A stretch of 64,000 bases of DNA from a virus: the IMG/VR virus record IMGVR_UViG_3300045988_180880, positions 64,001 through 128,000 of that record. One strand, 5' to 3'. The notes under the pieces are model-generated. The model saw only the letters and a program-made list of their open reading frames with translations. It ran no database searches and was not told where the DNA came from. Each line of letters begins with the position of its first letter. Position 1 is the stretch's first letter. Shown here one piece after another: positions 3,686-37,549 of this stretch. Made by a program: the position numbers and the translations under genes.

Positions 3686-4818
3686 ATGTCAGTATCTCTT
3701 GAGTTACTAACCGATGAAGCTATCATCGATTATACTAAAAGTGATGGAAAAGATCAAGTTCTATTTAATCATAGAGACTTGGACCTGAAGTACAATGGAA
3801 TACAACCTATCGCCGGTGGAGTCTATGATGTCGATATTTTTGGCTCACCCATGGAAGATAGATGTATTTGTGGAAAAATTCGACAACCCTCTGCTGAACC
3901 TTGTCCTCATTGCGGGGCGAGAGTATTTACAAGAGAAGAGGGATTGAGAAGATTTGCTAGAATTGAACTTCCTTTCTATTACTTGAATGATTTACGTTTT
4001 GATATCTTTAAAGAACTTTTCGAAGATATTTTTAAAGATAGTAAAATTGTATTAGATTTCTTTGGAGACGATCTTCGAAGAAATGGTTATAGTGCAAGAG
4101 GAGCGAAGAAATTAGGTATTAAAGTTTTTGATACCTGCCAGTTCGAATATAATCCAACAACAAAAGAACTAAAAATATCAGAATTTATTACTGATGAAGC
4201 TCTATGTTCTTACGAAGGATTAATTAAAATTATTGAAGAACATTTTCCCGCTCGTCTTACAGAATTTAAAAAATTAATTAATCGGTATTACCTAGTACAA
4301 CCTGCTATGATGAGACCTTTTACTCTCGGAATTAAAAACGGGAAAAAAGTAATGGGATCTCATAAACTTAGTATTTGGTACTCTATTATTATCAGACTTT
4401 GTTGCGTAGAAGATAAAAAATCTAATGACTTGAACTATGAGGAAGTTACATCTAAATTTAATACCCCTGGAGAAAGAGTTAGATATACAGCCCTTCTACG
4501 TGCTCTCCTAAATGCTGGAAAAAAAGAAGCTACAGCACTACTTAATACATCTAAAGAAAATCTAGCACGTGACTTGTATTCTGTCCGTACTAAAAATTCT
4601 GCTAGATGCCCAATTATACCTAGTACTACATTAGCTATCGATGAAATCTCTGTTCCAATACATATCGCTTATGAAATGTGTCGGGAAGGTTTCTTAGATT
4701 ACTTAATGAAAGAGCTGAATTTTACCAAAAACGAAGCACTCAAAGCAACAAAAGAAGAATATAATAATCCGGAAACTCTGAAAATGTTTAAAGAGTATGC
4801 GGAAAAACAAATCGTACT
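3686..4818 (+). CDS. rpoC: RNA polymerase beta' homologue, exon 1
   Basis: Zinc motif CICGK..CPHCG and RFARIELPFYY resemble the bacterial beta' N-terminus. The 5' splice site is set by P1 CGTACT/GGTACG with a terminal U.G. Confidence 0.85.
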
Positions 4819-4976
4819 AATGGTTTCCTAATTGGTACGTTAGGTGTGAATCCTAGAATATATAATGTGAATTATGTATTAAATTTTGTGTATTGCTGGG
4901 AGGATCTAAATATCTAATCAGCAGTTGAAGATAATTTATTTATACGAATTTATAATAATTAAAATACTAGAATATT

Positions 4977-5582
4977 ATGAAGGTACTTAGAATTAAACAC
5001 TTCTCTTCTCTAGTATCTACACAACCAATTTTTAATAGATCTGAACATATGAAGCAACTACATGCTCAAGGAAGATATCAAGGTACTTCTAAAATTGGTA
5101 TATGGAATTCTAGTGAAGAGAAGAGACAAAGAATGGCATTACTTGGAGCTAAAAATGCTTTAGATAAAAATTCTAAAGGTTATGGATCTGAGTATGCAAT
5201 GAGAGTAAATAATAGAATATTACTTGGAAATAAATTTCAAGGAGAAACTGGTTATTTATATTTTGTAAGATATCCGAAATCAATAAAAATTGGATTTTCA
5301 AAGAATTGGGAACGTAGAATTAATACCCAATTGATGAATCAATTTCAAATACTTGGTGGAAAAGTTGTAGCAATTATATCAGGACCTACCAATGAACTAG
5401 CTGATCTCGAGTTTGATACTTTTATTAAATTTCAAAAATATACTAAACTGTCTAAAGACGAAACAAGGTATACTGAATTTTTAGATGATAAAATTAGAAA
5501 AGACGTATATAACTTTTTGGATGATAAAGTAAAAAATAATAGTAATTTGAAATTTATTATACAAAATAAAATAAACCTTTGA
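4977..5582 (+). CDS. Intron-encoded T5orf172/GIY-YIG-like protein
   Basis: GYLYFVRYPKSIKIGFS...R pattern. Lies inside the intron between Q and R. Confidence 0.5.
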   Translation: MKVLRIKHFSSLVSTQPIFNRSEHMKQLHAQGRYQGTSKIGIWNSSEEKRQRMALLGAKNALDKNSKGYGSEYAMRVNNRILLGNKFQGETGYLYFVRYPKSIKIGFSKNWERRINTQLMNQFQILGGKVVAIISGPTNELADLEFDTFIKFQKYTKLSKDETRYTEFLDDKIRKDVYNFLDDKVKNNSNLKFIIQNKINL

Positions 5583-6364
5583 AATTTATGACACAAGAAG
5601 AAATTAAATACCATAATCAACTATGGTATTATAAAACATATAATCAACTTATAGATAAATGTATACAATTGGAGTCTGATGGTTATCCAGAAGATATGTA
5701 TACAGAGGTTCACCATATATTACCTAAATGTATGGGTGGAACAAATAAGGAAGATAATTTAGTAAGAATGCCTGTTAGATATCATATAATGGCTCATTTA
5801 TTACTTGTAAAAATATATCCAAATATAGGAAAAATAATATATGCAGCTAATATAATGATTGTCGGAAATAAAAATACAAGAGCTGAACGAAATCTAGCTT
5901 TAAATCAATTCTCTACAAAAACTATTAGTCAATTAAGGGAAACTATGGCAAATTATCAGAAAGGAAAACCTTTATCAGAAGAACATAAGCAGAAAATTTC
6001 TTTTGCATTAAAAGGAAAAGTACATTCTGAGGATCATAATAGAAAAGTTTCTGAATCTAAAAAAGGAAAACATTTATCAAAAGAAACGAAAGATAAGTTA
6101 AAGTTGTCCCATTTAGGTAAAAGTCTTTCTGAAAGTCATAAAAAAGCTATTGGAAACGCTCTTCGTGGAAGAAAAGGAAAACCTCTCTCTGAGGAAGTAA
6201 GAGAGAAAATTTCTAAAAATAATAAAATGTCAAAAGCTGTTCAGGATTATAATGGTGTAATTTATAATAGTATCTCTGATTGTTCTAGAAAATTAAATAT
6301 TCCAGATAGTACTATTAGTTATTGGATCAAAAAACATCCTGAAAAAGGTTTTAAATTCGTATAA
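5579..6364 (+). CDS. Intron-encoded HNH homing endonuclease
   Basis: EVHHILPKCMGGT..N..H HNH motif. Repeated SEEHKxKIS (NUMOD3-like) modules. Likely true start is the ATG at 5588. Close paralog of 13745-14629. Confidence 0.8.
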   Translation: MKFMTQEEIKYHNQLWYYKTYNQLIDKCIQLESDGYPEDMYTEVHHILPKCMGGTNKEDNLVRMPVRYHIMAHLLLVKIYPNIGKIIYAANIMIVGNKNTRAERNLALNQFSTKTISQLRETMANYQKGKPLSEEHKQKISFALKGKVHSEDHNRKVSESKKGKHLSKETKDKLKLSHLGKSLSESHKKAIGNALRGRKGKPLSEEVREKISKNNKMSKAVQDYNGVIYNSISDCSRKLNIPDSTISYWIKKHPEKGFKFV

Positions 6365-6511
6365 ATAAATTAATCACAATTCAACGACTATGGACAAAAC
6401 CAGGCTAGTGTTGTGATAACCTAGTTTTAACCATGGAAAATATAGTCTTTGCAAGATAGAATTATATCTTGGGTAATCAATATAAGTTGGCTAAAGTATT
6501 GATTATCACAG

Positions 6512-7163
6512 AGTTAATCGCCAACCCTCTTTGCACGAGTACAGTATGTTTAGCATGAAGCTCAAGCTTAATGATTCATATGCAATTGAATTTCCCATCG
6601 CTGTTTGTGAGCCTTTAAATGCTGACTTCGATGGCGATACGTGCTCCATACAACTCGTCCCTCCAGAGGCAGCAGAAGAAACATATCTTAGGATGTCGCC
6701 AAGATATGTGAATGTTTATAAGAAAAATAATGAACCTATATTTAAATTTAACCACGAAACTTTGAATGGTCTTGCAGTTGCATCAGAATACGTATTTGAT
6801 GATCAGGATGAATTAGAAAATCCTAGACACTTTTATACGGATTATGTGCAACTTCTTAAAGATGTTGAAGTAGAGAAAAAAATTAAAGTAGGTACTCCAA
6901 TTACATTCACTGGAAAAATTGGAAATGTTGAATATACCGCTAAAACAACAAGTTATGGTAGACTTCGAATTTCTAAGATTCTAGACGCAGATATGGATGA
7001 AATTGGGATTTTATCTAATAAATATGAACGTATCAGTGCTAAAGCTGCTTCGAAATTATCTTTATATCTTAATCAATTTCCTGATGGAGTTGAGAAAAGA
7101 AAAGCATTACAGAAGCTTGCCCTCAGAATTGTTACATTAGCAGGAGTAGTTACGTTTGACTAT
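6512..7163 (+). CDS. rpoC: RNA polymerase beta' exon 2 (catalytic loop)
   Basis: Contains NADFDGD. Begins NRQPSLH. Confidence 0.85.
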
Positions 7164-7350
7164 AAAATTGTAGCTTAAGAAATAAATTATCTTGAGAAAA
7201 TTCTATTAAAATGCTAGAACTATTAGAATAAAGTAGAATTAGCATCTCTATCTCTTAGATAAAATAGAGTTCAACGACTAAATATAGAACTGTATGAAGT
7301 TATATACAGATGATATAGTCTATCTAAATTAAGAAGATTTAGAATTAATG
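7164..7350 (+). mobile_element. Group I intron, type A, ORF-less
   Basis: AAATGCTAGAAC / TTAGCATC / GTTCAACGACTAA / GATATAGTCTA, then a P9 hairpin and 3' G. P1 is only 4 bp (CTAT/GTAG). Confidence 0.7.
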
Positions 7351-7464
7351 AAAACGTTATATGCTGATTGTGATACTGAGACGTATAAAAGAATATGTAA
7401 TGTTGCAGATTCAAAAGATCTTACTGATAAACAAAAACTTCTTATAATGACTGAAGAATTTCGT
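7351..7464 (+). CDS. rpoC: RNA polymerase beta' exon 3
   Basis: Open frame KTLYADCDTETYKR..TEEFR, bounded by intron cores on both sides. Confidence 0.65.
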
Positions 7465-7637
7465 TAATTATTTTTAGCGACTTAATAATTTTAATTATTA
7501 AGAAAAATAAGAGAATTGCTAGAACTATATATAAAATACTGAACTAGCATCAAGTAGTATTAACTATTTGTTCAACGACTATGTACTTATTATAAAATGA
7601 TATAGTCTACCTTTATTGATTGAATAAAGAGTTAGTG
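7465..7637 (+). mobile_element. Group I intron, type A, ORF-less
   Basis: GAATTGCTAGAAC / CTAGCATC / GTTCAACGACTAT / GATATAGTCTA. P1 TCGT/GCGA. Confidence 0.7.
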
Positions 7638-7766
7638 AAATATGAAAAAGAAGTTTCTGAAAGTTTTAGTACAGATCTTAAAAATGAATTAGCACGTGCA
7701 AATCGTGTAAAACTAAACTCGATTGTAGCAATGTCAATGCCTAAAGAAAAAATTGGGCAATATAAT
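7638..7766 (+). CDS. rpoC: RNA polymerase beta' exon 4
   Basis: Open frame KYEKEV..ANRVKLNSIVAMSMPKEKIGQYN. Confidence 0.65.
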
Positions 7767-7923
7767 GAAAATTAACTCATTATATTAAAATTATGTTAAT
7801 TGCTGGAACTGTAAGAATTATAGAATTAGCATCAAGTAAAAGCTTAAATTATTTGTTCAACGACTATATACATAATATTAAAGATATAGTCTAAACTTAT
7901 ATAAAGTAATATAAGTATCATTG
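7767..7923 (+). mobile_element. Group I intron, type A, ORF-less (about 157 nt)
   Basis: TAATTGCTGGAAC / TTAGCATC / GTTCAACGACTAT / AGATATAGTCTAA, P9 hairpin, tail ATCATTG. Confidence 0.7.
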
Positions 7924-8042
7924 CAATTTATTGTTAGTGGAGTTGATGAAAAACCTGTTATTACACGAGGAACACTTTTGTCAGGATATACAGAAAAAGA
8001 CTATCAGCTTCATTCAATCGAGAATAGATCACTACAGTCAAT
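7924..8042 (+). CDS. rpoC: RNA polymerase beta' exon 5
   Basis: QFIVSGVDEKPVITRGTLLSGYTEKDYQLHSIENRSLQS aligns with the bacterial segment ahead of the bridge helix. The 5' splice site is set by P1 AGTCAAT/GTTGACT with U.G. Confidence 0.75.
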
Positions 8043-9332
8043 TTTAGTTTACCTTTAGTTGACTATAAATTCTACTAAATGCTGGAATTCTGTGAAGAGA
8101 ATCAGCAGTTAATACAAAACTAAGTCATAAAGTTGTGAAATTATTATGGCAGGGAAATTGGAAAAATTTATATTAACAGATAAAGAAGAAATAGATTCTT
8201 TTAATAAATTAATTAGTTTAAATCCGCAACCTGGAAAATCTTTTGATAATTATTTAAAAGTTATCAATCGCGGTCATTATAAAATATGTTTATATAAATG
8301 GTTTACTGGATTAGATGAAGATATTTATGTAACTCAATCTCATTTATATAAACATTTGAATGATAATAGCAAATTTGTTAAAATAACACCTCAAATTTAT
8401 TATGATGTTATAGTATTAGGTTTGACTAATATTAATGATCGTCCTAAATGTGAAATATGTGGAAAAATATCTAGATGGGATGGATTTAAAAGAGGTTATT
8501 TAAAAACATGTTCAGAAAAGTGTTCTGAACTATTAAGAGATAGTAGAATGTCTGAACAAGGATTAAAAAATTTTCACAAATTACAGACAAAAGAGTCTAG
8601 AGAAAAGCAGAGGGAATCACATAAAGGATGGAGTCCTTCAGAAAAACAAAGAAAACAAATTTCTCAACGAATGAAAGATTTCTATAAGACACCAAAAGGA
8701 TTAGAAATGAGAAAGAATTCTAGTAGGTTATTATCTGAAAGAAATATTGAAATGATGAAAGATAAGTCTTATTATAACAAACGAACAGGAGGTAAATATA
8801 AAACAGGTATATATCATTCTAAAGTTTGGAATAAAGATTTTAATTATGATTCATCTTGGGAAATTAATTTTATAAAATTTTTTGAAAAGCAGAAATGGCA
8901 AAGTGAGATAAAAATATTTGATAGGTGTTTAGATTCTATTATTTATAAATGGGATGATGGAACTGAACATAGATATCTACCTGATTTTTACATCAAATTT
9001 AAATCAGGTCTTCAAGTTGTTATTGAGTTAAAACCAGCAAATCTAATAGAAAAAGATCCGGTGATTTTAGCCAAAAGAATAGCAGCGAAGAAATACTTTG
9101 CAAAAAGAAATATAAAATATATTATATTATCTGAAAATGAACTATTCACAACTAGATATATAAAGTATACTAAATTATCTGAAAGTTTAGGAATAGTTAA
9201 TTCATTTAATATTTATGATTACATAGTTTAATTAAGATTTAGTTTTGTATTAATTCAACGACTATATGTAGAAACTTATGTGAATAAGAAAGGTATAGTC
9301 TAAGTCTTTATGAATAAATAAAGATATCACTG
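8043..9332 (+). mobile_element. Group I intron core (type A) with endonuclease ORF; first half of a tandem insertion
   Basis: AAATGCTGGAAT (8081) / AATCAGCAG (8104) / ATTCAACGACTAT (9253) / GGTATAGTCTAA (9292), P9 hairpin, tail ATCACTG. Confidence 0.65.
8146..9231 (+). CDS. Intron-encoded PD-(D/E)xK-type endonuclease
   Basis: C-terminal PDFY..VIELKP (D..ExK). Cys-rich CEICGK..CSEKC. NUMOD-like SxxxKxKIS repeats. Confidence 0.55.
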   Translation: MAGKLEKFILTDKEEIDSFNKLISLNPQPGKSFDNYLKVINRGHYKICLYKWFTGLDEDIYVTQSHLYKHLNDNSKFVKITPQIYYDVIVLGLTNINDRPKCEICGKISRWDGFKRGYLKTCSEKCSELLRDSRMSEQGLKNFHKLQTKESREKQRESHKGWSPSEKQRKQISQRMKDFYKTPKGLEMRKNSSRLLSERNIEMMKDKSYYNKRTGGKYKTGIYHSKVWNKDFNYDSSWEINFIKFFEKQKWQSEIKIFDRCLDSIIYKWDDGTEHRYLPDFYIKFKSGLQVVIELKPANLIEKDPVILAKRIAAKKYFAKRNIKYIILSENELFTTRYIKYTKLSESLGIVNSFNIYDYIV

Positions 9333-9388
9333 AAAAGTTAGTGGAGTTAGAAATAAAACCTGAACTTTATGGTAGCCCACTATAAATA
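9333..9388 (+). pseudogene. Decayed duplicate of the 5' end of beta' exon 5 (pseudo-exon)
   Basis: AAAGTTAGTGGAGTTAGAAATAAAACCTG resembles TTGTTAGTGGAGTTGATGAAAAACCTG at 7931, with a 1-nt indel. A stop is met in the frame set by exon 5. Confidence 0.5.
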
Positions 9389-9780
9389 ACAAAGAAATGC
9401 TGGAAATAATAATAGACAGACGAAGTCAAAGTTTTTTAAAATCAGCAACTTATCAACGAGAAAAAGATGAATTATTAGTACTTTTTAAAACTTAATGTGT
9501 AGATTTGAAAAATTCTTAGAAACTCTAAGGCTTGTTGGAAGTATAGCAAGAACTATACTCTCTGGAATTGAAGAATATAGAAAAATTCAAGAAACAAAAG
9601 CTTATCGAGAGAATAAGAAAAATAATGTAAAATATCTACCAAGACCAAAAAGGTATAATAGTAGAAGAAAACAAAGATAAGATCAACGACTATGTATTGT
9701 TAGATTAAGGAAACTCTTTAATCATGATATAGTCTAATCTTACGTGAATAAGCGTAAGCAGGATAAGAGATTAGAAGACG
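9389..9780 (+). mobile_element. Group I intron core (type A); second half of the tandem insertion
   Basis: AAATGCTGGAAAT (9395) / AAATCAGCAAC (9439) / GATCAACGACTAT (9681) / GATATAGTCTAA (9726), P9 hairpin. No convincing P1 of its own. Confidence 0.55.
9495..9680 (+). CDS. Small basic ORF inside intron core
   Basis: 61-aa ORF with a K/R-rich C-terminus. No endonuclease motif. Confidence 0.3.
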   Translation: MCRFEKFLETLRLVGSIARTILSGIEEYRKIQETKAYRENKKNNVKYLPRPKRYNSRRKQR

Positions 9781-10106
9781 TCTTTTAAAAATTATAATAT
9801 CTAATCTCTTTGAATGGCCTAGTTCAGGATATTTAACACGACAAATTTCATTCCTTTTAAATAGTTTTATATATCATGAAGGAGAAGATCCAGAAAACAC
9901 AGGATTACTCATTCCACGATATAAAGCATTAGGAAGAACAGCACCGAACGGAAAGGTATACCCAGACAAACCAATAGTAAATGGTTCTGAGGATGATCTT
10001 GTTCCAGTACGTTCGATTGTTACAAAAAGAACTGGAGATTTAAGCACAATTACACCAGACCTGATTGGAAAGAAATTTAGTTTTACTGATGGAGCAGCAA
10101 TAGGAT
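9781..10106 (+). CDS. rpoC: RNA polymerase beta' exon 6 (bridge helix region)
   Basis: SSGYLTRQ matches bacterial NSGYLTRR. The frame is open only from 9767. The track lists no ORF here because there is no start codon. Confidence 0.75.
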
Positions 10107-10353
10107 AAGTTTAGAATTGTCCATAAAAGTTTGTTATAGACTTTTATTAAACTTCAAGAATTGCTGGGAGTATTATCGCTATTTATTCTTCGCCTTGTAA
10201 AATAAAAAACTTAAGGCGAAAATTATATAGCGAGAGATAATCAGCAAAAGATATAGAAAATATATCTTCTTAACGACTATGTGTGAAGGAGAGATTAAAA
10301 CACTCTTAAGATATAGTCTAGTAATCTATATAAAGTTTGTATAGGTTTAATCG
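10107..10353 (+). mobile_element. Group I intron, type A, ORF-less
   Basis: GAATTGCTGGGAG / TAATCAGCA / CTTAACGACTAT / AGATATAGTCTA. The junction gives GAAIG-L-SFATS. Confidence 0.7.
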
Positions 10354-10400
10354 TATCATTTGCTACATCATTAACTGAAGGTACTACTCAATTAAAATTG
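10354..10400 (+). CDS. rpoC: RNA polymerase beta' exon 7 (trigger-loop base); 3' end approximate
   Basis: SFATSLTEGTTQLK matches bacterial AAQSIGEPGTQLT. The 3' boundary is uncertain by about 10 nt. Confidence 0.6.
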
Positions 10401-10573
10401 GTTGCTATATAAAATAGTATTATATAGAAAATCTTTGTAAAATGCTGGAAATTAAAAAAAAATAATCAGCATCAAGGAATATATTAATAACTTGTTCAAC
10501 GACTATAAAAAAAGATCTTATTAATTTAAGAATGGTATAGTCTAAATTCATTCTAAAAGGATGAATAATCTTG
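10401..10573 (+). mobile_element. Group I intron, type A, ORF-less (boundaries approximate)
   Basis: AAATGCTGGAAAT / TAATCAGCATC / GTTCAACGACTAT / GGTATAGTCTAA, then a P9 hairpin. Confidence 0.65.
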
Positions 10574-10602
10574 CAGCATTAGGTCTGAAACATGGTGGCC
10601 AT
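10574..10602 (+). CDS. rpoC: RNA polymerase beta' exon 8 (about 29 nt)
   Basis: Encodes ALGLKHGGH (bacterial RTFHIGG). The 3' end is set by P1 GCCAT/GTGGC with U.G. Confidence 0.65.
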
Positions 10603-10762
10603 AGATTATATTTGTGGCGTATAATTTCAATAATTGCTGGAAATATTTGTAATAAAATAAATCAGCAGGGGAAAATAAAATCCCTTCAACGACTATAAAT
10701 GAAACTAGATGAATTTCTGGATGATATAGTCTAACTTATAAATTATATTATAAGAGTAATTG
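10603..10762 (+). mobile_element. Group I intron, type A, ORF-less (about 160 nt)
   Basis: TAATTGCTGGAAAT / AAATCAGCAGG / CTTCAACGACTAT / GATATAGTCTAA, 3' G at 10762. Confidence 0.75.
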
Positions 10763-11002
10763 GAACGTGTGCTTAATACAGAAGGAAATCTTAAAGCACC
10801 AAAACAATGTGAGTTTAGAGAGGAAGGCAGATGGATTTACCTAAAAGTTAGAGGAGGAGAATTAAAATATCCGAGACCTAATAATTGGGTAGGAGTAGGT
10901 AAGACAAAATTTGAGAAAGGTGACTTAATAGGGTCAGCTTATAATACTACCTCGCCTATTTACAAGTTGAACGCTCTCATAAAACTTATGCGTGCCAAAG
11001 GT
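10763..11002 (+). CDS. rpoC: RNA polymerase beta' exon 9
   Basis: Open frame ERVLNTEGN..MRAKG. Ends in AAAGGT, the type B insertion site. Confidence 0.7.
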
Positions 11003-11195
11003 GAATATAAAATTGCCGTCTAAGGAAGTAATTCTCTAGATAATTAGTAAGTAAATTTGGTGAAGCTAGTAACTAGTAATACCAAGCCTTGGATTAATAA
11101 TTAGAATCTTAAGGTATAACGAATAAAGACTTACCAACTTTTTTATAAGTTGAATTTATATTCTAAACTATAATAAGAAAATTATAGATAAATTG
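11003..11195 (+). mobile_element. Group I intron, type B, ORF-less
   Basis: GCCG guide, P2 hairpin, AGTAAGTAAATTTGGTGAAG / AATACCAAG / TATAACGAATAAAGACTTACC / AATTTATATTCT, terminal hairpin, tail ATAAATTG. Confidence 0.7.
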
Positions 11196-11804
11196 AGTGA
11201 TGGCACAAGATATTTTGAGAAGGATAATGTTATTGTATCTGATTGTTATGCTTTGAATGATGGGGTTATTCATTACAAAGAGACCAAGGAAGGTGATACT
11301 GAAGTTTGGATTGGTGATACTCAGTATGACTATAATCCAGAGTGTATGTATTATTTTCCTGATGGTACAGAGATTAAGAAATTTCAAAGAATTTCCAGCG
11401 GAGTTTGCAATATGAATCATGTTATTGCAGAGTTGGGTTCTAATATTAATGATATTTACTTAATCTTTAGAAAACAATTTTATACTTTAACAGATGGAGG
11501 ATTTGTATCAACTGGTTTATCAGATCTTCATGCTACACAGGAAGAACTTATTGAACTTTTATTCACAGGTTTAACTGATGTAGGTGTAGATCCAGAAACA
11601 CAGAAGATTGAAGACATCCAATATCTAGGTACTCAAAGTGGTGTTTTAAATAAGAAGTCATTCTATACTGTTTTGTCTTACGGTTATAGCTCTAGAGTTG
11701 TGTCTAAAGCTCTCAAAGGGGAATTAAATCTTTCTGGTGACGTAATGACAGAAACTATATTAGGATTACTTTTAAATAATAAACTTGACGAAAAACAAAA
11801 GTAA
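11196..11804 (+). CDS. rpoC: RNA polymerase beta' exon 10 (C-terminal)
   Basis: Open frame SDGTRYFEKDN.. running to the stop at 11804. Confidence 0.7.
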   Translation, partial: SDGTRYFEKDNVIVSDCYALNDGVIHYKETKEGDTEVWIGDTQYDYNPECMYYFPDGTEIKKFQRISSGVCNMNHVIAELGSNINDIYLIFRKQFYTLTDGGFVSTGLSDLHATQEELIELLFTGLTDVGVDPETQKIEDIQYLGTQSGVLNKKSFYTVLSYGYSSRVVSKALKGELNLSGDVMTETILGLLLNNKLDEKQK

Positions 11805-13336: not shown

Positions 13337-13557
13337 ACAAAATATAAAGGTGCCGTTTTATGGAGAAATCTATAAAATTATTAGTAAGTAAATTCGGTGA
13401 AGGGTAAAACCTAATACCGAACTAAGGATAATGAAAATTTTTAGTGTAACGAATAAAGACTTACTAACTTATAATTAAAATATAAGTTAAATTTATATTC
13501 TGTTCTATATAAGTAGAACTTTATTTATATAGTTAACAATAAAGCCCCCCTGGAGTA
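13337..13557 (+). mobile_element. Group I intron, type B (3' boundary unresolved)
   Basis: GCCG, P2 hairpin, AGTAAGTAAATTCGGTGAAG / AATACCGAAC / GTGTAACGAATAAAGACTTACT / AAATTTATATTCT, terminal hairpin ending at 13531. Confidence 0.6.
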
Positions 13558-13641
13558 AATTCCATTAACTTAGAGGCAATCTCCCAAAAAATTGTTATTC
13601 CTGCGAGTGTAGCCTTTAATTCGACTTTTACAGATTTAGAT
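13558..13641 (+). CDS. rpoB: RNA polymerase beta exon 2 (5' end approximate)
   Basis: The only open frame is ISINLEAISQKIVIPASVAFNSTFTDLD. The 3' end is set by P1 TTAGAT/GTCTGA. Confidence 0.5.
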
Positions 13642-14763
13642 TAAGTCTGATTATAGAATATTTTTTATAATAAAAACTTTGAGAATTGCTAGAAAACTAG
13701 TGATAGTTAATTAGCAGTATAAAATAAGTATAATTATTTATGCGTTGAGAGGAAAAATTTTTGAAAGGAATTTAAGAATGACGCATGTAAAAGAAATTAA
13801 ATACCACAATCAATTATGGTATTATAAAACGTACAATCAGTTAATAGATAAGTGTATACAGATGGAGTCTGAAGGTTATCCTGAAGATATGTATACAGAG
13901 GTTCACCACATACTACCTAAATGTATGGGTGGGACAAATGATGAGTCTAACTTAGTAAGAATGCCAGTTAGGTATCATATAATGGCACATTTATTGTTAG
14001 CACAAGTATATCCAGAAATAAATGGATTAGTTTATGCAGCACATGTTCTAGTCTCAGTGAATAATTCAGTTGTATCTACGAATACAGCTGCATTAATTAG
14101 AGAAGATTTTAAAAAGTCTAGAATAGGATCTCATCATTCAGAAGAGACAAGGAGAAAAATTTCTGAATCTAACAAAGGAAAAGTTATCCCTAGAGAACTA
14201 GTAGAGAAGTTAAGATCTATTAATTTAGGGAAGAAACATTCACTTGAAACGAGAAAGAAGATGTCAGAAGCTAGAAAAAGAGAGAATTTATCCGAGGAAA
14301 CACTAAGAAAAAGATCTCTAGCGTCCTCTGGAAGAAAACATTCTGAAGAAGTCAAGAAGAAGATTTCTATAGCTAATACTGGAAAAATTTTTAGCGAAGA
14401 ACACAGACAAAACATATCTAAAAGTAAGATGGGAAAAGGACATCCACATACTGAAAAAACAAAGAAAATGATGTCTGATACTAGCGTTAAGAGAAAAAGA
14501 GTTCAAGGCCCTGATGGAATAATTTACGAATCTATGAAACTTTGTTGTGAGAAATTTAATATTCATAGAGATACCCTTCGAAGCTGGATTAAAAATCACC
14601 CAGAAAAAGGCTTTAAATTTATTGATTAAAAAATTTATCATTACTATAAATTCCTTTCAATGTAATGAAATTTAATACTTATTTTATATTCAACGACTAT
14701 GTACAAAGAGGGAAATTCCTTAAGATATAGTCTAGTGATAAAGTAAAAAACTTTATCTATTCG
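13642..14763 (+). mobile_element. Group I intron, type A, with HNH ORF
   Basis: GAATTGCTAGAAA / TTAGCAG / ATTCAACGACTAT (14690) / AGATATAGTCTA, P9 hairpin, tail TATTCG. Confidence 0.8.
13745..14629 (+). CDS. Intron-encoded HNH homing endonuclease
   Basis: EVHHILPKCMGGTN and repeated SEETRxKIS modules. C-terminal WIKNHPEKGFKF. Likely start is the ATG at 13778. Confidence 0.8.
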   Translation: MRGKIFERNLRMTHVKEIKYHNQLWYYKTYNQLIDKCIQMESEGYPEDMYTEVHHILPKCMGGTNDESNLVRMPVRYHIMAHLLLAQVYPEINGLVYAAHVLVSVNNSVVSTNTAALIREDFKKSRIGSHHSEETRRKISESNKGKVIPRELVEKLRSINLGKKHSLETRKKMSEARKRENLSEETLRKRSLASSGRKHSEEVKKKISIANTGKIFSEEHRQNISKSKMGKGHPHTEKTKKMMSDTSVKRKRVQGPDGIIYESMKLCCEKFNIHRDTLRSWIKNHPEKGFKFID

Positions 14764-15132: not shown

Positions 15133-15326
15133 ACTAATTTATGTGCCGCTTAAAGTAGTAATATTTTAAGTAACCAGTAAGTAAATTCGGTGAAAGAGTG
15201 ACTGAGCTTTAATACCGAGCTAAAGATAATAGATTTCTTTAGTGTAACGAATAAAGACTTACTAACCAAAATAAAGGTTAAATTTATATTCTAAACTATA
15301 ATTAAAAGTATATTATAGAAGATTTG
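15133..15326 (+). mobile_element. Group I intron, type B, ORF-less
   Basis: Follows ATGGGT. Same conserved core as 11003-11195. The junction restores MG-TSMLKQSIPL (bacterial MGSNMQRQAVPL). Confidence 0.8.
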
Positions 15327-16266: not shown

Positions 16267-17666
16267 TTAATATAAGTCTAGTTAATTTTCAATAAAAGTT
16301 AACTAAATTTTGTGAATTGCTGGAAAAATCTAAATAAAATAGATGGATAGATAAATCAGCAGTATATTTATGTTTAATTATGAGTAAAATATGAGCGATA
16401 TTAATTTTTAATAATAAATTGAACAATGAGCGAAGAAGAAATATTAATACATAATCAAAATTGGTATCGCAAAGTATATTTCCAAATAATTGATCGCGCT
16501 AGATTAAGAGGTTTGGATAAAAATAAAATTGATTTTTATGTAGAAATTCATCATATACTACCTAAATGCCTAGGAGGAACTGATGAAAATGATAACTTAG
16601 TTGCATTAACTTATAGAGAACATATAGTTTGTCATAAATTATTGTGTAAATTATACCCAGATAATTACTACTTACATTCTTCTATATATTTAATGCTACA
16701 TATTAAAATAGAAAATGGGAAGAAGGTAAAAACATTTTCTAATTCTAAAGAGGCAGAAGAATATAAGCTTTTCTTGAAAACTCATAAAAAGCCTCTTTCT
16801 GAGGAATCTAGAAAAAAGATGTCAGAATCGCATAAAGGTTGGAGTCCATCTGAGGAACATAGAAGAAGAGTTTCAGAAGTACATACTGGAAAAATCGTTT
16901 CAAAAGAAACCAGAGAAAAATTAAGAAAGGTTAATCTGGGAAGACATCATACAGAAGAATCCAAAAGAAAGATATCAGAGTCACGTAGAGGAAAGAAATT
17001 ATCTTCAGAACAAAAAGAAAAAATTTCAAAATCACTAAAAGGAAAAAGATTAGGAATCTCTCCAACTAAGGAACAAGTAGAAAAAGCAAAACAAACTCGG
17101 ATACTCCATGGAGGGTGGGTACATACAGATGAAAGTAAAAGAAAAATTTCAGAATCTTTAAAGAAGACGAATTCTGTCTCTGAACATATATCAGAAGATA
17201 TAAGAAATTCTTTAAGGAAAAAGTTTGGGTTCGCTGTAAGATATACTGATATTAATACTGGTGAAATTTACGAATTTGATTCAATTACAAAAGCTGTTAG
17301 TGAACTTAAAGAGTTAAGTATTATGAATAAAAGCTTTCATTTTATAAAGCGTTCTTGTACATTAAATATTAATGGATTTGAATTTATCAATGAAACAAAT
17401 GAAATGATTCAAAAGAAAGTTCAGGGGCCTGATGGAATTATTTACAATAGTATATCTGAATGTGCTAGACAATTGAATACAGTTAGATCTGTAATTATTG
17501 ATTGGATTACTAATCATCCAGAAAAAGGATTTAAATACATTTAAAAAATCAATCGCTCATTGATATAAAAATAATTAAATAAAATATATTCAACGACTAT
17601 GTACAAAGAAGGAGTATTTCCTTAAGATATAGTCTAGACTTTACTTAATTAAGTAAAGTATTATCG
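16267..17666 (+). mobile_element. Group I intron, type A, with HNH ORF
   Basis: GAATTGCTGGAAAA / AAATCAGCAG / ATTCAACGACTAT (17589) / AGATATAGTCTA, P9 hairpin, tail ATTATCG. Confidence 0.8.
16426..17544 (+). CDS. Intron-encoded HNH homing endonuclease
   Basis: EIHHILPKCLGGTDENDN..H and repeated SEExRxKxS modules. C-terminal WITNHPEKGFKY. Confidence 0.8.
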   Translation: MSEEEILIHNQNWYRKVYFQIIDRARLRGLDKNKIDFYVEIHHILPKCLGGTDENDNLVALTYREHIVCHKLLCKLYPDNYYLHSSIYLMLHIKIENGKKVKTFSNSKEAEEYKLFLKTHKKPLSEESRKKMSESHKGWSPSEEHRRRVSEVHTGKIVSKETREKLRKVNLGRHHTEESKRKISESRRGKKLSSEQKEKISKSLKGKRLGISPTKEQVEKAKQTRILHGGWVHTDESKRKISESLKKTNSVSEHISEDIRNSLRKKFGFAVRYTDINTGEIYEFDSITKAVSELKELSIMNKSFHFIKRSCTLNINGFEFINETNEMIQKKVQGPDGIIYNSISECARQLNTVRSVIIDWITNHPEKGFKYI

Positions 17667-17680
17667 ATGGAGGCAAAGGT
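17667..17680 (+). CDS. rpoB: RNA polymerase beta exon 5, a 14-nt micro-exon
   Basis: ATGGAGGCAAAGGT. Joined to its neighbours it gives SR-Y-GGKG-VVS, matching bacterial GRHGNKGVIS with identical spacing. Confidence 0.7.
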
Positions 17681-17871
17681 CAAATTACAAGGCCGTTTAA
17701 GGTAGTAATATCTTAAATAATCAGTAAGTAAATTTGGTGAAGGAAGTAAAATTCTAATACCAAGCTAATAAAATATAATAATTTATTAGTATAACGAATA
17801 AAGACTTACTAGGTTGAAATAATACCTAAATTTATATTCTAATTTACTAGGATAATCTAGTAATAGTAATG
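17681..17871 (+). mobile_element. Group I intron, type B, ORF-less
   Basis: Follows AAAGGT. Has GGCCG, a P2 hairpin and the conserved type B core. Tail TAGTAATG. Confidence 0.75.
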
Positions 17872-18645: not shown

Positions 18646-18833
18646 AAATTATTGAGGCTAGTATCAATACAAACTGATACTAGAAAATATCTTAAATTGC
18701 TGGAACAAAGTAGAAAATCAGCATCAAGCTGTTGTTTTATAATTAACAGCTTGTTCAACGACTATAGTAGATACTAAAGAATACTTATTTTAGATAATAT
18801 AGTCTTACTTTAAATAAAATTAAAGATGAATAG
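18646..18833 (+). mobile_element. Group I intron, type A, ORF-less
   Basis: AAATTGCTGGAAC / AAATCAGCATC / GTTCAACGACTAT / TAATATAGTCTTA, P9 hairpin, tail ATGAATAG. P1 CCTT/GAGG. Confidence 0.7.
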
Positions 18834-18862
18834 AATAACTTATTAGGTCTAGGATTAACCGT
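18834..18862 (+). CDS. rpoB: RNA polymerase beta exon 7 (29 nt)
   Basis: Encodes NNLLGLGLT(V). P1 AACCGT/GCGGTT with U.G. Confidence 0.6.
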
Positions 18863-19046
18863 AAACTATTTGCGGTTTTAAATTATATTAAAATGCTAGA
18901 ATATTTATAATAAATATATTAGCAAAATATCTTACCTTAGATTATATCTAAGAAAAAGATATTCTCAACGACTAAATATATAACTAAGTTTGAAATATAA
19001 TTTAGATGATATAGTCTGAACATAGATTAATAATAATCTAGTAACG
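18863..19046 (+). mobile_element. Group I intron, type A, ORF-less
   Basis: AAATGCTAGAAT / TTAGCAA / CTCAACGACTAA / GATATAGTCTGA, P9 hairpin, tail GTAACG. Confidence 0.7.
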
Positions 19047-19053
19047 TAATTGA
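19047..19053 (+). CDS. rpoB: RNA polymerase beta terminal exon (7 nt: 4 coding nt plus stop)
   Basis: GT + T AAT TGA gives ..TVN-stop. All three frames close within a few codons after the intron. Confidence 0.5.
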
Positions 19054-22860: not shown

Positions 22861-22867
22861 TAAATAG

Positions 22868-22941
22868 TGGGCCCAGCCAGGCTTGAACTGACGACCTTCT
22901 GATTATGAGTCAGCTTCTCTAACCAACTGAGATATGGGCCC
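22868..22941 (-). tRNA. tRNA with CAU anticodon (Met, or Ile if lysidine-modified)
   Basis: Reverse complement GGGCCCATATCTCAGTTGGTTAGAGAAGCTGACTCATAATCAGAAGGTCGTCAGTTCAAGCCTGGCTGGGCCCA folds as a cloverleaf. The TPsiC arm is GGTCGTCAGTTCAAGCC. Confidence 0.9.
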
Positions 22942-22959
22942 TGTTATAATTATGTCTAG

Positions 22960-23050
22960 TATCGGGAGGGGAGCTCGAATCCCCACGGGTCTTATTTTTC
23001 TGCCCAAAACATTTTAAGTGTTTCTTGTCTACCTATTCCAACATCCCGAC
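22960..23050 (-). tRNA. tRNA-Leu (UAA) with long variable arm
   Basis: Reverse complement GTCGGGATGTTGGAATAGGTAGACA..CTTAAAA..GGGGATTCGAGCTCCCCTCCCGATA. Anticodon loop CTTAAAA. Extended variable arm. Confidence 0.85.
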
Positions 23051-23177: not shown

Positions 23178-24566
23178 TCAGGGTTTCTGAGATTCCTCTT
23201 TTTCCTCAAGTTTAAAATTTCCTGCAGTACCATGTCCTAACGATAGTACTAACTTTACTGCCTCAGGACCTCTCATGTAGTAATATCCGTCTGGCGCAGG
23301 TTTTTCAGAATTTAAATTTTTACTAATACTTTTAGTAGAAATAACTGATTCCTTCTTTGCAGATGTAATTGAATTATATGCTCCAAGAACTCTTAATTTA
23401 TCTTTAGAAAATTTATATATTATATTCTCCATCTTTTTATGTAATTTCTCTTTGTCTCCAAGTTTAATACAAATATATTTTGTAGAAATTACATTACTAC
23501 TTAATAACCTATCTACTCTGGATCTTTTAATATTGTCTTTTCCAACTAGTTTCTGGATATCTCTCGAAAAACCAAAATTTAAAAAGTCTCCATATAGATC
23601 TGCTAATACTATTTTTTCTGATAATTTTTCCAGAGTATTTACATTATTCATATTTCCTTTTTGATCAGTAACTCTAAGATTAGAAAAACTATTATCTGTT
23701 TTTATTGTATTAATGTGATCAATTATTTCTCCCTTTTTTAAATTTCTTCTTAAGAGATATTCCATAATAACTGTATGCGCTTTAGTACTATTACTATCAA
23801 CTATAATATATCCTTTATTATTAAGTGTTCCTATTAATTTATTAAATCTATTTGATTTAATAAATCCTTCACTACACACAGACCATTGAGGATATTTCCA
23901 GTGTTCATACCAAGTATAGTCATCTAAGTTTCCAGAAAATCCTATAAGATCAAAAAACTTTTGATTATTTAATGATTCTTGTCGTTTCCAATAATATCCT
24001 TTATAGCTATATTGACTTTTTTTAGCAATCGAAGAAATGTAACGTATATCATATCCTTTACTATCTAAAGAATCTATTGTAAATAATTCATTTCCCTTTT
24101 TATCCATTGCAGTATATTTAATTCGTTTATCTTTATGAACTGGTAAGCGTCTATCTGGACTATTATTTTCACTTTTAGTAACCCATTCTAAGTTAGATAG
24201 GTTATTATTTCTTGGATTATGATCTATATGATTAACTATATTATATATTTTTGGTTCTGAATTATTATAGAAAATGGTAGCCATTATTATATGAATAGAT
24301 TTTGCTTTTCTTTTATGCTTTTCTATATATTGTGGAGAGATTGTAGTATATCCAAATTCATCTTGTTGTTGTTTTAATAGTTGTTTAGTGTATTTATTTC
24401 TAACTTCAGATTTTTTATTAATCTCATATATATCCTTAATACCTGGATATACTAATGGAATAAATTCATAGTCAGGGAGATCTGGATATTTTTGATCTTG
24501 GCGATTAAATGGTTTTTCTTTACACATAACAAAAATAGTTTCTAAATTAAACATCTTTTTCATCAC
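23178..24566 (-). CDS. Free-standing HNH endonuclease with two HNH_3-type domains
   Basis: NHIDHNPRNNNLSNLEWVT and IIDHINTIKTDNSFSNLRVT. Confidence 0.7.
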   Translation of the reverse strand: MMKKMFNLETIFVMCKEKPFNRQDQKYPDLPDYEFIPLVYPGIKDIYEINKKSEVRNKYTKQLLKQQQDEFGYTTISPQYIEKHKRKAKSIHIIMATIFYNNSEPKIYNIVNHIDHNPRNNNLSNLEWVTKSENNSPDRRLPVHKDKRIKYTAMDKKGNELFTIDSLDSKGYDIRYISSIAKKSQYSYKGYYWKRQESLNNQKFFDLIGFSGNLDDYTWYEHWKYPQWSVCSEGFIKSNRFNKLIGTLNNKGYIIVDSNSTKAHTVIMEYLLRRNLKKGEIIDHINTIKTDNSFSNLRVTDQKGNMNNVNTLEKLSEKIVLADLYGDFLNFGFSRDIQKLVGKDNIKRSRVDRLLSSNVISTKYICIKLGDKEKLHKKMENIIYKFSKDKLRVLGAYNSITSAKKESVISTKSISKNLNSEKPAPDGYYYMRGPEAVKLVLSLGHGTAGNFKLEEKEESQKP

Positions 24567-37163: not shown

Positions 37164-37336
37164 TACTAAATTTAATATGGTATTAAATTATTAGACTATA
37201 TCATCTATTTTTCATAGTTATACATTTAGTCGTTGAACAAGTAACTAATATTCCTTGATGCTGATTTATGTCTTACATTTTCCAGCATTTTAGTATAATT
37301 TTCTTAAATTTTATTATTTAAGCGACTAAGCAATTA
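37164..37336 (-). mobile_element. Group I intron, type A, ORF-less
   Basis: The - strand reads AAATGCTGGAAAA / AAATCAGCATC / GTTCAACGACTAA / GATATAGTCTAA. P1 CGAT/GTCG. Coordinates may be off by 1-2 nt. Confidence 0.7.
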
Positions 37337-37549
37337 ATCGATAAACAGGATTTTATAATCTTTGGTTTTCATGAATTCTATATATTTATCTACTGAAATT
37401 TTTCCAGCTGGTAGTATAGTTATACTAAGATTATCTCCAATCATTTGACACATACTATTGTATATAGGTCCTATGTTTTGAGATACTTCATTAAATGACA
37501 ATCCTGTAAATTGAGCTCCTAATCTGATAATCATTATAAATTTAATTTT
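37337..37549 (-). CDS. DnaB-like helicase, exon 2
   Basis: KIKFIMIIRLGAQFTGLS..KILFID. Confidence 0.65.

Follow-up and report, generated by a model that had tools for sequence, protein, structure and literature searches.

The segment 3686-11804 on the plus strand of the window analysed here, a 64-kb stretch of an IMG/VR virus record, is almost certainly a single bacterial-type RNA polymerase beta' gene interrupted by ten group I introns, in a human-gut jumbo phage with an AT-rich genome of roughly 370 kb. The limits of this gene are exact. Its eleven exons add up to 3345 nt and encode 1114 amino acids, and its ten introns represent 59% of its length (Table 1). The ten introns proposed in the preliminary description are borne out by colinear homologues, intron-less alleles, the conserved U(-1) and terminal (omega) G, the pairing of P1 with the internal guide sequence (IGS), covariation and homing-endonuclease ORFs. 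No higher number of introns per gene than ten turned up in the phage literature searched, and the preliminary description had placed it far above the one to three per gene of T4, Twort, SPO1 or AR9-type phages. The same gene, however, holds up to 15 cores in other strains.

Table 1. Exons and introns of the beta' gene, in gene order (a slash within an exon sequence or protein marks a splice junction, here and in the text)
Feature	Positions	Strand	Description
Exon 1	3686..4818	+	Zn finger CICGK..CPHCG; ends in codon phase 2 (CT/A); 100% identical in many assemblies
Intron 1	4819..6511	+	class A group I, 1693 nt; P/Q/R/S at intron nt 75/99/1562/1622
Exon 2	6512..7163	+	VNRQPSLH, NADFDGD; Pfam PF00623
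Intron 2	7164..7350	+	class A, 187 nt; P1-P9 complete
Exon 3	7351..7464	+	114 nt
Intron 3	7465..7637	+	class A, 173 nt; minimal P8
Exon 4	7638..7742	+	105 nt
Intron 4	7743..7923	+	class A, 181 nt
Exon 5	7924..8042	+	119 nt
Intron 5	8043..9332	+	class A, 1290 nt; P1 AGUCAAU with GUUGACU, 7 bp with U.G
Exon 6	9333..9348	+	16-nt microexon, A AAA GTT AGT GGA GTT = ..I KVSGV
Intron 6	9349..9817	+	class A, 469 nt; P6-loop insertion
Exon 7	9818..10106	+	PSSGYLTRQ...AAIG; ends in phase 1
Intron 7	10107..10353	+	class A, 247 nt; extended P5; R variant TTAACGACTA
Exon 8	10354..10392	+	39-nt microexon, LSFATSLTEGTTQ, trigger-loop region
Intron 8	10393..10573	+	class A, 181 nt
Exon 9	10574..10602	+	29-nt microexon, SALGLKHGGH
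Intron 9	10603..10762	+	class A, 160 nt, smallest
Exon 10	10763..11002	+	240 nt
Intron 10	11003..11195	+	class B group I core, 193 nt; after GGU, IGS GCC
Exon 11	11196..11804	+	C-terminal 202 codons and stop

Once concatenated, the exons are covered at 100% by unsplit homologous proteins of 1113-1126 amino acids, one of which (P0003) is 71% identical to the spliced product over its full length with 5 gap positions. The frame is open in each of the eleven exons and continues across all their junctions, and every catalytic motif is kept. The beta' hallmarks are CICGK..CPHCG in exon 1, NRQPSLH and NADFDGD in exon 2, SSGYLTR in exon 7 and TEGTTQ in exon 8. These five do follow one another in the expected order, in distinct frames that stops close, as first described, but the final LK of the reported EGTTQLK is intronic read-through, the predicted spliced protein reading TEGTTQ/SALGLKHGG across exons 8 and 9. 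The predicted junctions J6 and J8 are AAGTTAGTGGAGTT/CCTAGTTCAGGATA and AGGTACTACTCAAT/CAGCATTAGGTCTG, respectively; the region of exon 6 reads LQSIKVSGVPSSGY in relatives, and the last T of exon 7 is the first base of an apparent TAA stop. Many stops and frame changes across 8 kb of metagenomic origin could also point to a decaying pseudogene, or to an assembly or chimera artefact. This is highly improbable in view of the in-frame, catalytically complete protein. Moreover, an independent IMG/VR assembly (L010) matches all 8119 nt with 99% identity, the intron pattern is the same in L018 and L029, and the exact protein sequence of exon 1 is indexed in 4689 blocks of a public collection.

The RNA polymerase subunits of jumbo phages are known to occur as several separate polypeptides each, and the ORF callers used for public data report exon 1 and the region from exon 2 onward as separate proteins. 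Both observations would fit a split gene whose fragments are translated separately and assemble, with no splicing, to form a beta' of several pieces, as in jumbo phages of the phiKZ/AR9 type. The exon structure makes such an arrangement very hard to sustain. As originally noted, three exons are shorter than 60 nt (16, 39 and 29 nt), and a start codon is missing from these as well as from several larger ones. The breaks interrupt codons (phases 1 and 2) as well as invariant motifs, the trigger loop among them; the relatives encode one unbroken protein, and a group I core lies on the sense strand in every gap. Finally, near-identical strains differ solely in that the intervening sequences are precisely present in some and absent from others.

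Where particular introns are missing in near-identical strains, the junction sequence is exactly the one predicted. The locus L011, devoid of introns at the sites of introns 2 to 4, reads ..TFDYKTLY.., ..TEEFKKYEKEV.. and ..AMSMPQFITSGV.. at these positions, with an unbroken MTEEFKKYEKEV at the intron 3 site, where the 3' splice site was set at 7637 (previously 7631) for colinearity of EEFR/KYEKE. L022, which has no introns at the sites of introns 7 to 10, is residue-identical over 4/4 predicted junctions. The beta' intron count varies from 0 to 15 across strains, and among strains whose exon 1 is identical the number of cores in this gene ranges from 2 to 15, with sites that differ in part. 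Unrelated genes also contain near-identical copies of introns, the core of intron 2 being about 90% identical to that of intron m1 of another gene. The beta' introns are mobile or recently mobile.

The gene contains exactly ten gaps. The P/Q/R/S elements, initially attributed to every gap, are present in order in nine of them, which share a single core type (class A: P, TGCTRG; Q, YAGCA; R, TCAACGACTA; S, ATAGTCT), while the tenth holds another group I-type core. The four motifs are ordered in 15/15 class A introns of the window, where the R motif occurs 16 times against 2.9 expected (about 5.5-fold), a number reached in 0/100 shuffles. Intron 10 matches the class A model weakly (23.6 bits). 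Its class B core, with helices P3 (AGUAAGU with ACUUACC), P4 (UUUGGU with ACCAAG) and P7 (GAAUA with UAUUC), recurs in three introns of the beta gene next to it; class B introns are always inserted after GGU, and the P1 of intron 10 has only 3-5 bp. The adjacent beta gene contains 7 introns in all, a helicase-like gene 2 and thyX 1, and the whole window at least 20. A U at position -1 of the 5' exon and a terminal intron G are observed at 10/10 beta' junctions and 7/7 beta-gene junctions; the chance estimate of this rule, about 8e-20, is partly circular and not fully independent, since the rule was used in choosing among candidate junctions.

The cognate pairing of P1 with the IGS places a U.G wobble at the splice site. 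In intron 1, this pairing was read from the sequence as CGUACU/AAU with AUUGGUACG, the automated scan having scored another one (UCGUACU with GGUGUGA). Intron 6 is atypical in that its splice-site U.G requires a 1-nt bulge; at the same site, the U.G is canonical in L028 and L030, and L026 covaries (GUGUU with AAUAU versus GAGUU with AACUU in the window). The comparison of cognate with non-cognate permutations gave 0/20000 for P1, 7/20000 for P3 and 0/20000 for P6, and RNAalifold alone predicts P4, P6 and P7. In an alignment of 60 distinct sequences from 27 loci, which was fitted to the model, 100% of the cells are paired, compensatory changes affect 4/4 P6 pairs, and pair 5 of P4 is GC in 36 sequences and AU in 21. 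Covariation supports helices P1, P3, P4, P6 and P7. All model matches in related loci (163/163) lie on the gene's own strand. The suggested search with the Rfam model RF00028 returned no match at the curated threshold, nor at E<=10 on 17.5 kb; when single introns were searched, full-length matches below the cut-off of 50 were obtained for intron 2 (19.9 bits) and intron 10 (10.8 bits), and the helix assignment of both alignments agrees with the present one.

Introns of about 160-250 nt resemble in size the cleavage ribozymes of the GIR1 type (PMC12880540), and the elements could be such group I-like lariat-capping ribozymes or other RNA-processing elements. There is very little to recommend this reading, given that the elements combine a P1 formed with the 5' exon, a U.G at the junction, a terminal G and a P9 hairpin with a 3' tail, that the exons are exactly colinear once they are removed, all of these being typical of splicing introns, and that cleavage alone would leave the sole beta' mRNA destroyed.

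By extension of established group I chemistry to the present cores, all ten introns would be catalytic and capable of autonomous splicing. The whole beta' gene would be transcribed as one precursor in which every intron folds into a P4-P6 domain and a P3-P8 domain with the guanosine pocket of P7. The IGS would pair with the final 3-7 nt of the exon upstream, the U.G wobble defining the 5' splice site, and two transesterifications, ending at the terminal G, would release each intron. The ten excisions combined would produce a single 3345-nt reading frame.

Seven of the ten introns are miniature and devoid of ORFs (160-247 nt). The other three carry ORFs in the P6 region. Intron 1 contains, between Q and R, ORF 4977-5582 (a weak homing-endonuclease match) and ORF 5579-6364 (an HNH/NUMOD3 homing endonuclease); intron 5 contains, also between Q and R, ORF 8146-9231 with a TnsA-like or PD-(D/E)xK-type nuclease domain; and the P6 insertion of intron 6 contains a 61-codon ORF (9495-9680) of no recognised family. 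The classical phage group I introns (T4 td, nrdB and nrdD, Twort ORF142, SPO1 pol, AR9) number 1-3 per gene and measure about 250-1000 nt. They share with the beta' introns the catalytic core with R/S-type P7 sequences, the in-frame stops just past the 5' splice site, the endonuclease ORFs in peripheral loops and the targeting of conserved parts of nucleotide-metabolism and polymerase genes; thyX of the window is split as T4 td is. The difference lies in the presence of ten introns in one gene and in the very small size of seven of them. In fungal mitochondria, the organellar cox1 gene is likewise a single conserved gene with numerous group I introns, some with endonucleases and others without, and with short exons and presence/absence polymorphism between strains. 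Those introns, however, are mostly longer than 1 kb and usually depend on protein maturases, whereas the beta' gene belongs to a virus and has miniature introns. The jumbo phage PhiPA3 also has a group I intron with an HNH homing endonuclease in an RNA polymerase subunit gene, gp210, and this endonuclease was proposed to attack the intron-less alleles of co-infecting relatives (PMC11620839). In this nucleus-forming Pseudomonas phage, however, the intron is single and the polymerase split, as opposed to ten mostly ORF-less introns in an unsplit beta' gene.

The T4, Twort, SPO1 and AR9 phages, to which the gene had been compared at first, are an outdated reference, the crAss-like Zeta phages and the Jug phages being already described as rich in introns (PMC7886860; PMC12880540). 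[quoted passage not shown] The beta' gene differs from these in having 10 introns by itself (up to 15) and by the absence of inteins and of an alternative genetic code. The phage of the window very probably belongs to the "Jug" jumbo phages of the human gut. Its type agrees with that of the Jug reports, with human-gut contigs of 363-401 kb that have about 30% G+C and encode RpoC; about 18.5 group I introns per genome, with a mean of about 206 nt, are reported there (PMC12880540; PMC12363816). Small group I introns, HNH and PD-(D/E)xK endonucleases and fragmented essential genes are further points in common, the examples shown being terL (2-3 fragments), nrdD (4 fragments) and DNA polymerase (PMC12880540). 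The same paper states that metatranscriptome reads confirm splicing for 37/76 predicted group I introns, which bears on the window only if the latter belongs to a Jug phage. Since at least 20 introns are found in this 64-kb window alone, the E<=1e-4 model scan used there probably undercounts introns. The accessible Jug text and supplements contain no description of an 11-exon rpoC, of a beta gene with 7 introns or of microexons of 14-39 nt (PMC12880540), and no description of this beta' architecture was found in the crAss-like Zeta paper or in the accessible part of the Jug paper (PMC7886860; PMC12880540). As the heavy group I load of Jug-type phages was already published in 2025-26, the beta' gene is a striking new instance of it and not a new mechanism.

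A possible, if rather unlikely, variant of the preferred reading accepts the ten group I introns as real but supposes that some of the miniature AT-rich cores splice inefficiently or depend on a protein, such as a phage or host maturase or chaperone. The G+C content of the beta' introns is only 0.20-0.28, and those of 160-190 nt, at about 22%, may need a protein or high Mg2+ for folding. P8 is almost absent in introns 3 and 4, P1 helices can be as short as 3-5 bp, and that of intron 6 is atypical. The frame of the exon upstream of intron 9 continues into the core for 31 codons without a stop, so that ribosomes could disturb its folding, and just 37 of the 76 introns predicted in the Jug study have read support (PMC12880540). 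On the other hand, the core pairs are perfectly kept in the 60 distinct copies, and the recurrence of the same arrangement in L010 and of the exon 1 protein in the 4689 blocks suggests that beta' is made efficiently enough. Should splicing nevertheless be protein-dependent or inefficient, the output of beta' would be limited or timed by splicing.

The hallmarks of an RNA polymerase beta' (RpoC-type) subunit follow one another in order on the plus strand between 3686 and 11804, in differing frames each closed by stops, as the preliminary description had it. Rpb1 domain 2 (Pfam PF00623) is recognised in the first two large ORFs of this gene. Once spliced in silico, the polypeptide contains, in order, the Zn-binding N-terminal motif, NRxPxLH, NADFDGD, SGYLTR and the trigger-loop TQ..HxGG, and its more distant matches are bacterial RpoC proteins. 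A rough concatenation of the open segments, searched against a collection of 5.8 billion proteins, retrieved many uninterrupted proteins of 1113-1126 aa at 100% query coverage and 52-68% identity; a one-piece form of the gene therefore exists among relatives. Among the GenBank phages of INPHARED, megablast and tblastn found no close relative, only Rhizobium and Vibrio phage beta' sequences at about 30% identity.

The splice sites were set by alignment to eight intact homologues, an in-frame join, a U at exon position -1 and a G as the last intron nucleotide. The resulting eleven exons (E1-E11), separated by ten gaps with group I sequence hallmarks (I1-I10), bear out in substance both what had been observed and how it had been interpreted, including three exons shorter than 60 nt (E6, E8 and E9). 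The exons total 3345 nt (1114 codons and a stop) and the introns account for 59% of the 8119-nt gene. The spliced protein, in a version predating a revision of the I3 3' site, aligned end-to-end with an uninterrupted homologue of 1113 aa (P0003) at 71% identity with five gap positions, two of which stemmed from the superseded site. That site, at 7631 (EEFR^LVKYEKE, the caret marking the splice point), gave a 2-residue excess in BLASTP and was dropped for 7637, with which a natural intron-less allele (locus L011) agrees. Alignment to the intact homologues also ruled out longer versions of several exons and a putative 23-codon exon at 9314-9382, the real exon in this place being the much shorter E6. 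The introns are inserted in the most conserved parts of the protein: immediately before NRQPSLH, around SGV^PSSGYLTR, and within the trigger loop.

Features of the beta', beta, helicase-like and thyX genes in the window (J1-J10, predicted exon junctions of the beta' gene; ^, splice point)
Feature	Position	Strand	Length	Remarks	Predicted junction
E1	3686-4818	+			
I1	4819-6511	+	1693 nt	class A	J1 AAACAAATCGTACT^AGTTAATCGCCAAC
I1 ORF	4977-5582	+		weak homing-endonuclease PHROG match	
I1 ORF	5579-6364	+		HNH/NUMOD3 endonuclease (phrog_655, E 1e-39)	
E2	6512-7163	+			
I2	7164-7350	+	187 nt	class A	J2 TTACGTTTGACTAT^AAAACGTTATATGC
E3	7351-7464	+			
I3	7465-7637	+	173 nt	class A	J3 CTGAAGAATTTCGT^AAATATGAAAAAGA
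E4	7638-7742	+			
I4	7743-7923	+	181 nt	class A	J4 CAATGTCAATGCCT^CAATTTATTGTTAG
E5	7924-8042	+			
I5	8043-9332	+	1290 nt	class A	J5 TCACTACAGTCAAT^AAAAGTTAGTGGAG
I5 ORF	8146-9231	+		TnsA-like PD-(D/E)xK-type nuclease	
E6	9333-9348	+	16 nt		
I6	9349-9817	+	469 nt	class A	J6 AAGTTAGTGGAGTT^CCTAGTTCAGGATA
E7	9818-10106	+			
I7	10107-10353	+	247 nt	class A	J7 AGCAGCAATAGGAT^TATCATTTGCTACA
E8	10354-10392	+	39 nt		
I8	10393-10573	+	181 nt	class A	J8 AGGTACTACTCAAT^CAGCATTAGGTCTG
E9	10574-10602	+	29 nt		
I9	10603-10762	+	160 nt	class A	J9 AACATGGTGGCCAT^GAACGTGTGCTTAA
E10	10763-11002	+			
I10	11003-11195	+	193 nt	class B; 5' splice site AAAGGT^	J10 TGCGTGCCAAAGGT^AGTGATGGCACAAG
E11	11196-11804	+			
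beta gene	12474 to ~19163	+			
beta intron	13337-13544	+		class B; 5' splice site ACAGGT^	
beta intron	13636-14763	+		class A, HNH ORF	
beta intron	15133-15326	+		class B; 5' splice site ATGGGT^	
beta intron	16267-17666	+		class A, HNH ORF	
beta microexon	17667-17680	+	14 nt		
beta intron	17681-17871	+		class B; 5' splice site AAAGGT^	
beta intron	18646-18833	+		class A	
beta microexon	18834-18862	+	29 nt		
beta intron	18863-19052	+		class A	
m2	37161-37336	-		class A, helicase-like gene	
m1	37532-37693	-		class A, helicase-like gene; 5' splice site approximate	
thyX (flavin-dependent thymidylate synthase)	45441-46597	-		Pfam Thy1 over two ORFs	
thyX intron	~45963-46135	-		approximate junctions; class A model 40.3 bits at 45987-46119	

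Natural variation provides a direct view of the gene with fewer introns. In IMG/VR, 25 loci with an identical or similar exon 1 were found, and their intron sets differ. The L011 allele, which is devoid of I2, I3 and I4, reads AGVVTFDYKTLYADCD, LLIMTEEFKKYEKEV and AMSMPQFITSGV uninterrupted. A second allele (L022), devoid of I7-I10, encodes residues identical to the spliced prediction at the four corresponding junctions (AAIG^LSFATSLTEGTTQ^SALGLKHGGH^ERVLN; RAKG^SDGTRY). The predicted junctions of the beta' gene are confirmed, at the level of their sequence, by these natural intron-less alleles. A U at exon position -1 and a terminal omega-G are present in 10/10 beta' introns and 7/7 introns of the adjacent beta gene; this rule was also used in choosing candidate junctions, and it is the intron-less alleles that confirm the junction sequences. 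The structure is not an assembly artefact, since an independent assembly (L010) matches all 8119 nt at 99% identity.

The nature of the gaps was established from their cores. The motifs P (TGCTRG), Q (YAGCA), R (TCAACGACTA, or TTAACGACTA in I7) and S (ATAGTCT), which match the classical group I P, Q, R and S elements, occur in this order in I1-I9. The preliminary description had placed such elements in every gap; this stands, as a single ordered set, for I1-I9 (class A), but I10 has a second type of group I core (class B). The R decamer is present 16 times in the window for 2.9 expected; an R-like match at 38582-38591 (-) was taken as chance because it lies within an ORF and has no S partner. 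Folding I2 by hand produced a full P1-P9 structure in 187 nt, and RNAalifold recovered P4, P6 and P7 independently from nine ORF-less introns. A covariance model built from nine cores retrieved every class A intron of the window, including both halves of the ORF-bearing ones, matched three of the four class B introns weakly, and detected 163 copies in 27 related loci, none of them on the antisense strand. Among 60 distinct sequences, in an alignment fitted to the model, standard pairs occupy 100% of the modelled-pair cells, each of the four P6 pairs occurs in all four Watson-Crick types, pair 5 of P4 is G-C in 36 copies versus A-U in 21, and the G-C of the P7 guanosine pocket (columns 143/197) is invariant.

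The register of P3 shifts by one column between introns in the MAFFT alignment, and helices lacking common columns (P1, P3 and P6) were examined instead by comparing the pairing of each strand with its own partner to its pairing with the strands of other introns. The observed mean was reached in 0/20000 permutations for P1 (exon end and internal guide, with the U.G forced at the splice site), 7/20000 for P3 and 0/20000 for P6. In each intron, the 5-7 bp complement proper to its P3 lies immediately 3' of R, as expected of the P3/P7 pseudoknot. A U.G-closed P1 helix of 4-7 bp is found in eight of the nine class A introns of the beta' gene, I6 scoring 3 bp.

The class B core was resolved by hand on the alignment of I10 with the three beta-gene introns sharing it. 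It comprises P3 (AGUAAGU/ACUUACY), P4 (UUYGGU/ACCRAR), a P7 (GAAUA/UAUUC) with a G-C equivalent to the guanosine-binding pair, and a P8 and P9 of its own. The P1 of I10, also read by hand, is GGU/GCC, and all four class B introns lie directly after GGU with GCC as guide. As few as about 3-5 nt seem to be enough for target recognition by class B, a requirement that would fit a spread by reverse splicing.

The ten interruptions of the beta' gene carry every sequence-level hallmark of group I introns, and catalysis by them is predicted on that basis. A gene can also be interrupted by inteins, which are in-frame insertions with Hint domains, by group II introns, which have domains V/VI and an RT ORF, or by translational bypass, in which a gap of about 50 nt separates take-off and landing codons. 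All three were rejected: frames change and stops close every gap, the gaps extend over 160-1693 nt and each contains a group I core, neither Hint nor RT domains were detected, and Rfam gave no group II match over the whole window or, at E<=10, over 17.5 kb. Readings in which the stops are recoded, or in which the ORFs encode the pieces of a split subunit, were discarded as well: the frames change from exon to exon, and neither domains nor RNA matches fitting these readings were found.

The group I assignment had been expected to be verifiable with the Rfam model RF00028, which returned no match at its gathering score of 50 bits over the whole window, or at E<=10 in 17.5 kb. When I2 was searched alone, the full model (1-253) aligned with 19.9 bits, and I10 alone reached 10.8 bits, for the same cut-off of 50; the helices assigned by RF00028 in both introns agree with those described here. 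The gathering score is a criterion of detection, not a biochemical one, and these introns escape it because they are very short and very AT-rich (G+C 0.20-0.28). Subgroup-specific group I models were used in the study of the Jug phages, a jumbo clade of the human gut (PMC12880540).

The ORFs of I1 and I5 are placed between Q and R, in the P6 region. An in-frame stop is found 0-10 codons past the 5' splice site in nine of the ten beta' introns; T4 introns have such early stops too, and their presumed role is to keep ribosomes off the core. The exception is I9, where the frame of the upstream exon remains open for 31 codons (10603-10698), through P4-P7 of the core. In I6, P1 (GGAGUU/AACUUU) requires a 1-nt bulge to place the U.G at the splice site; this helix covaries in locus L026 (GUGUU/AAUAU), and textbook U.G helices occupy the same site in L028 and L030. 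P8 is nearly absent from I3 and I4, and m1, in a helicase-like gene, has neither P2 nor a convincing U.G-containing P1. These four introns (I6, I3, I4 and m1) may be weak or helper-dependent.

The beta' gene is not the only one affected, and at least 20 group I introns are present in the 64 kb: ten in beta', seven in beta, two (m1 and m2) in the helicase-like gene and one in thyX. The seven introns of the beta gene were mapped with the beta proteins of two relatives. In one of them (L006) beta is uninterrupted (982 aa). The other (L001), a 293.7-kb scaffold from wolf gut, has an intact beta' gene and a single beta intron, at the site named Ib3; this 250-nt intron (L001:15365-15614) is of class A type where the window has class B, and different intron types thus hold one site across lineages. 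On the minus strand, the gene containing m1 and m2 has an upstream neighbour (38414-39514) in which helicase-like domains are recognised. Between m1 and I2, which lie in different genes, the cores are about 90% identical, and this is evidence of a recent spread within the genome. In the thyX intron, R and S have the variant forms GTTCAGAGACTAA and ATATAGTCC, and this split gene echoes the td intron of T4. An endonuclease gene also occurs outside the recognised introns: a free-standing 462-aa ORF (23178-24566, -) has two HNH_3 domains and adjoins two neighbouring tRNA genes, tRNA-Met (CAT) and tRNA-Leu (TAA) (22867-23050, -). A Cpn60/GroEL-type chaperonin is encoded at 32822-34441 (-) (Pfam PF00118, E 1e-54).

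The number of cores in beta' varies widely from strain to strain: none in L001, two in L026 and L030, ten in the window, L010, L018 and L029, and 15 in L014, L017 and L027. Additional insertion sites in other strains are located near aa 72, 403, 425, 451, 466, 700, 719, 824-836 and 898. Among strains whose exon 1 is 100% identical, identity can be as low as 68-84% at aa 379-466, a stretch in which they carry different intron sets; mosaic alleles, with recombination or co-conversion linked to the introns, are suggested by this pattern. Introns number 10-15 in beta' and seven in beta, and the strains taken together have at least 15 different sites of insertion. One tentative explanation, judged rather unlikely, is that the miniature ORF-less introns (160-190 nt) are a proliferating repeat family and that their pile-up in the polymerase genes results from an arms race between co-infecting strains. 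The idea of a proliferating family is drawn from the invariable position of class B after GGU and from the near-identity of I2 and m1 in different genes; a new site would need only 3-6 nt of complementarity to the guide. In the arms race, intron-borne or free-standing endonucleases would cut intron-less alleles, and the introns, together with the diverged exon sequence flanking them, would confer immunity. In this scenario, the output of polymerase may depend on how efficiently 17 splicing events proceed together.

The phage itself appears to be widespread. The exact protein of exon 1 is found in 4689 blocks of a public collection, on contigs of 240-395 kb, and the contigs of IMG/VR that share this exon are up to 375-401 kb long. 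Among the related loci, L033 (CASEGV010000001.1, 370,971 bp) is a species-representative contig of GTDB that bears the label 'uncultured Mycoplasmatota bacterium'; it has the beta' gene of this phage, with an exon 1 that is 93% identical, and the size of the entire phage genome. A phage genome has probably been misbinned here as a bacterial MAG. In the huge-phage collection table of the Jug study, at least three UViGs sharing exon 1 are listed, from human gut, with a G+C of 0.297-0.313 and sizes of 292-378 kb (363 and 378 kb for two of them). The Jug clade, for which TerL, MCP and genome similarity are the formal criteria, groups gut phages of 360-402 kb and 27-30% G+C that encode RpoC and have numerous small group I introns (PMC12880540), which infect Bacteroides/Phocaeicola (PMC12880540; preprint PMC12363816). 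The G+C of the window is 0.292, and the window appears to derive from a Jug-type phage, which would make its source one of the most prevalent phages of the human gut.

Both this kind of element and the intron-richness of the Jug clade are already published. In its genomes, 2513 group I introns were predicted (136/139 genomes, averaging 18.5 per genome and about 206 nt in length), accompanied by HNH, PDDEXK and GIY-YIG endonucleases and splitting terL, nrdD and the DNA polymerase gene, with metatranscriptome support for the splicing of 37/76 (PMC12880540). In the parts of that article and its supplements that were available, RpoC serves as a marker only, and no description of the rpoC exon-intron structure was found (PMC12880540). 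Earlier, the crAss-like Zeta phages were called unprecedented, with as many as 14 introns in a genome and the MCP gene broken into five fragments (PMC7886860). A single HNH-bearing intron, situated in the RNA polymerase gene of a jumbo phage, has been shown to mediate competition between co-infecting phages (PMC11620839). What is new here is the scale, a single gene containing ten introns (up to 15) and the pair of polymerase genes 17, as well as microexons as short as 14-16 nt, two families of miniature introns (160-250 nt) missed by standard models, and an extensive polymorphism between strains.

This organization has practical consequences. ORF callers, which cannot see microexons of 14-39 nt, shred this essential gene, and public databases list the pieces as separate 'hypothetical proteins'. 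Given this shredding and the Rfam misses, intron counts and RpoB/RpoC phylogenies of such phages are likely to be in error unless in silico splicing is applied to the genes. The cores of 160-190 nt are also attractive as candidate minimal ribozymes. Complete at 160-190 nt (about 22% G+C), they are, to our knowledge, no larger than the smallest well-studied self-splicing introns, such as that of Azoarcus (about 205 nt). If the phage is indeed of Jug type, 17 introns in two polymerase genes would represent a new scale of self-splicing elements tolerated by a viral gene. Strains with 0-15 introns at partly different sites constitute a natural experiment on intron gain and loss, homing and phage-phage competition.
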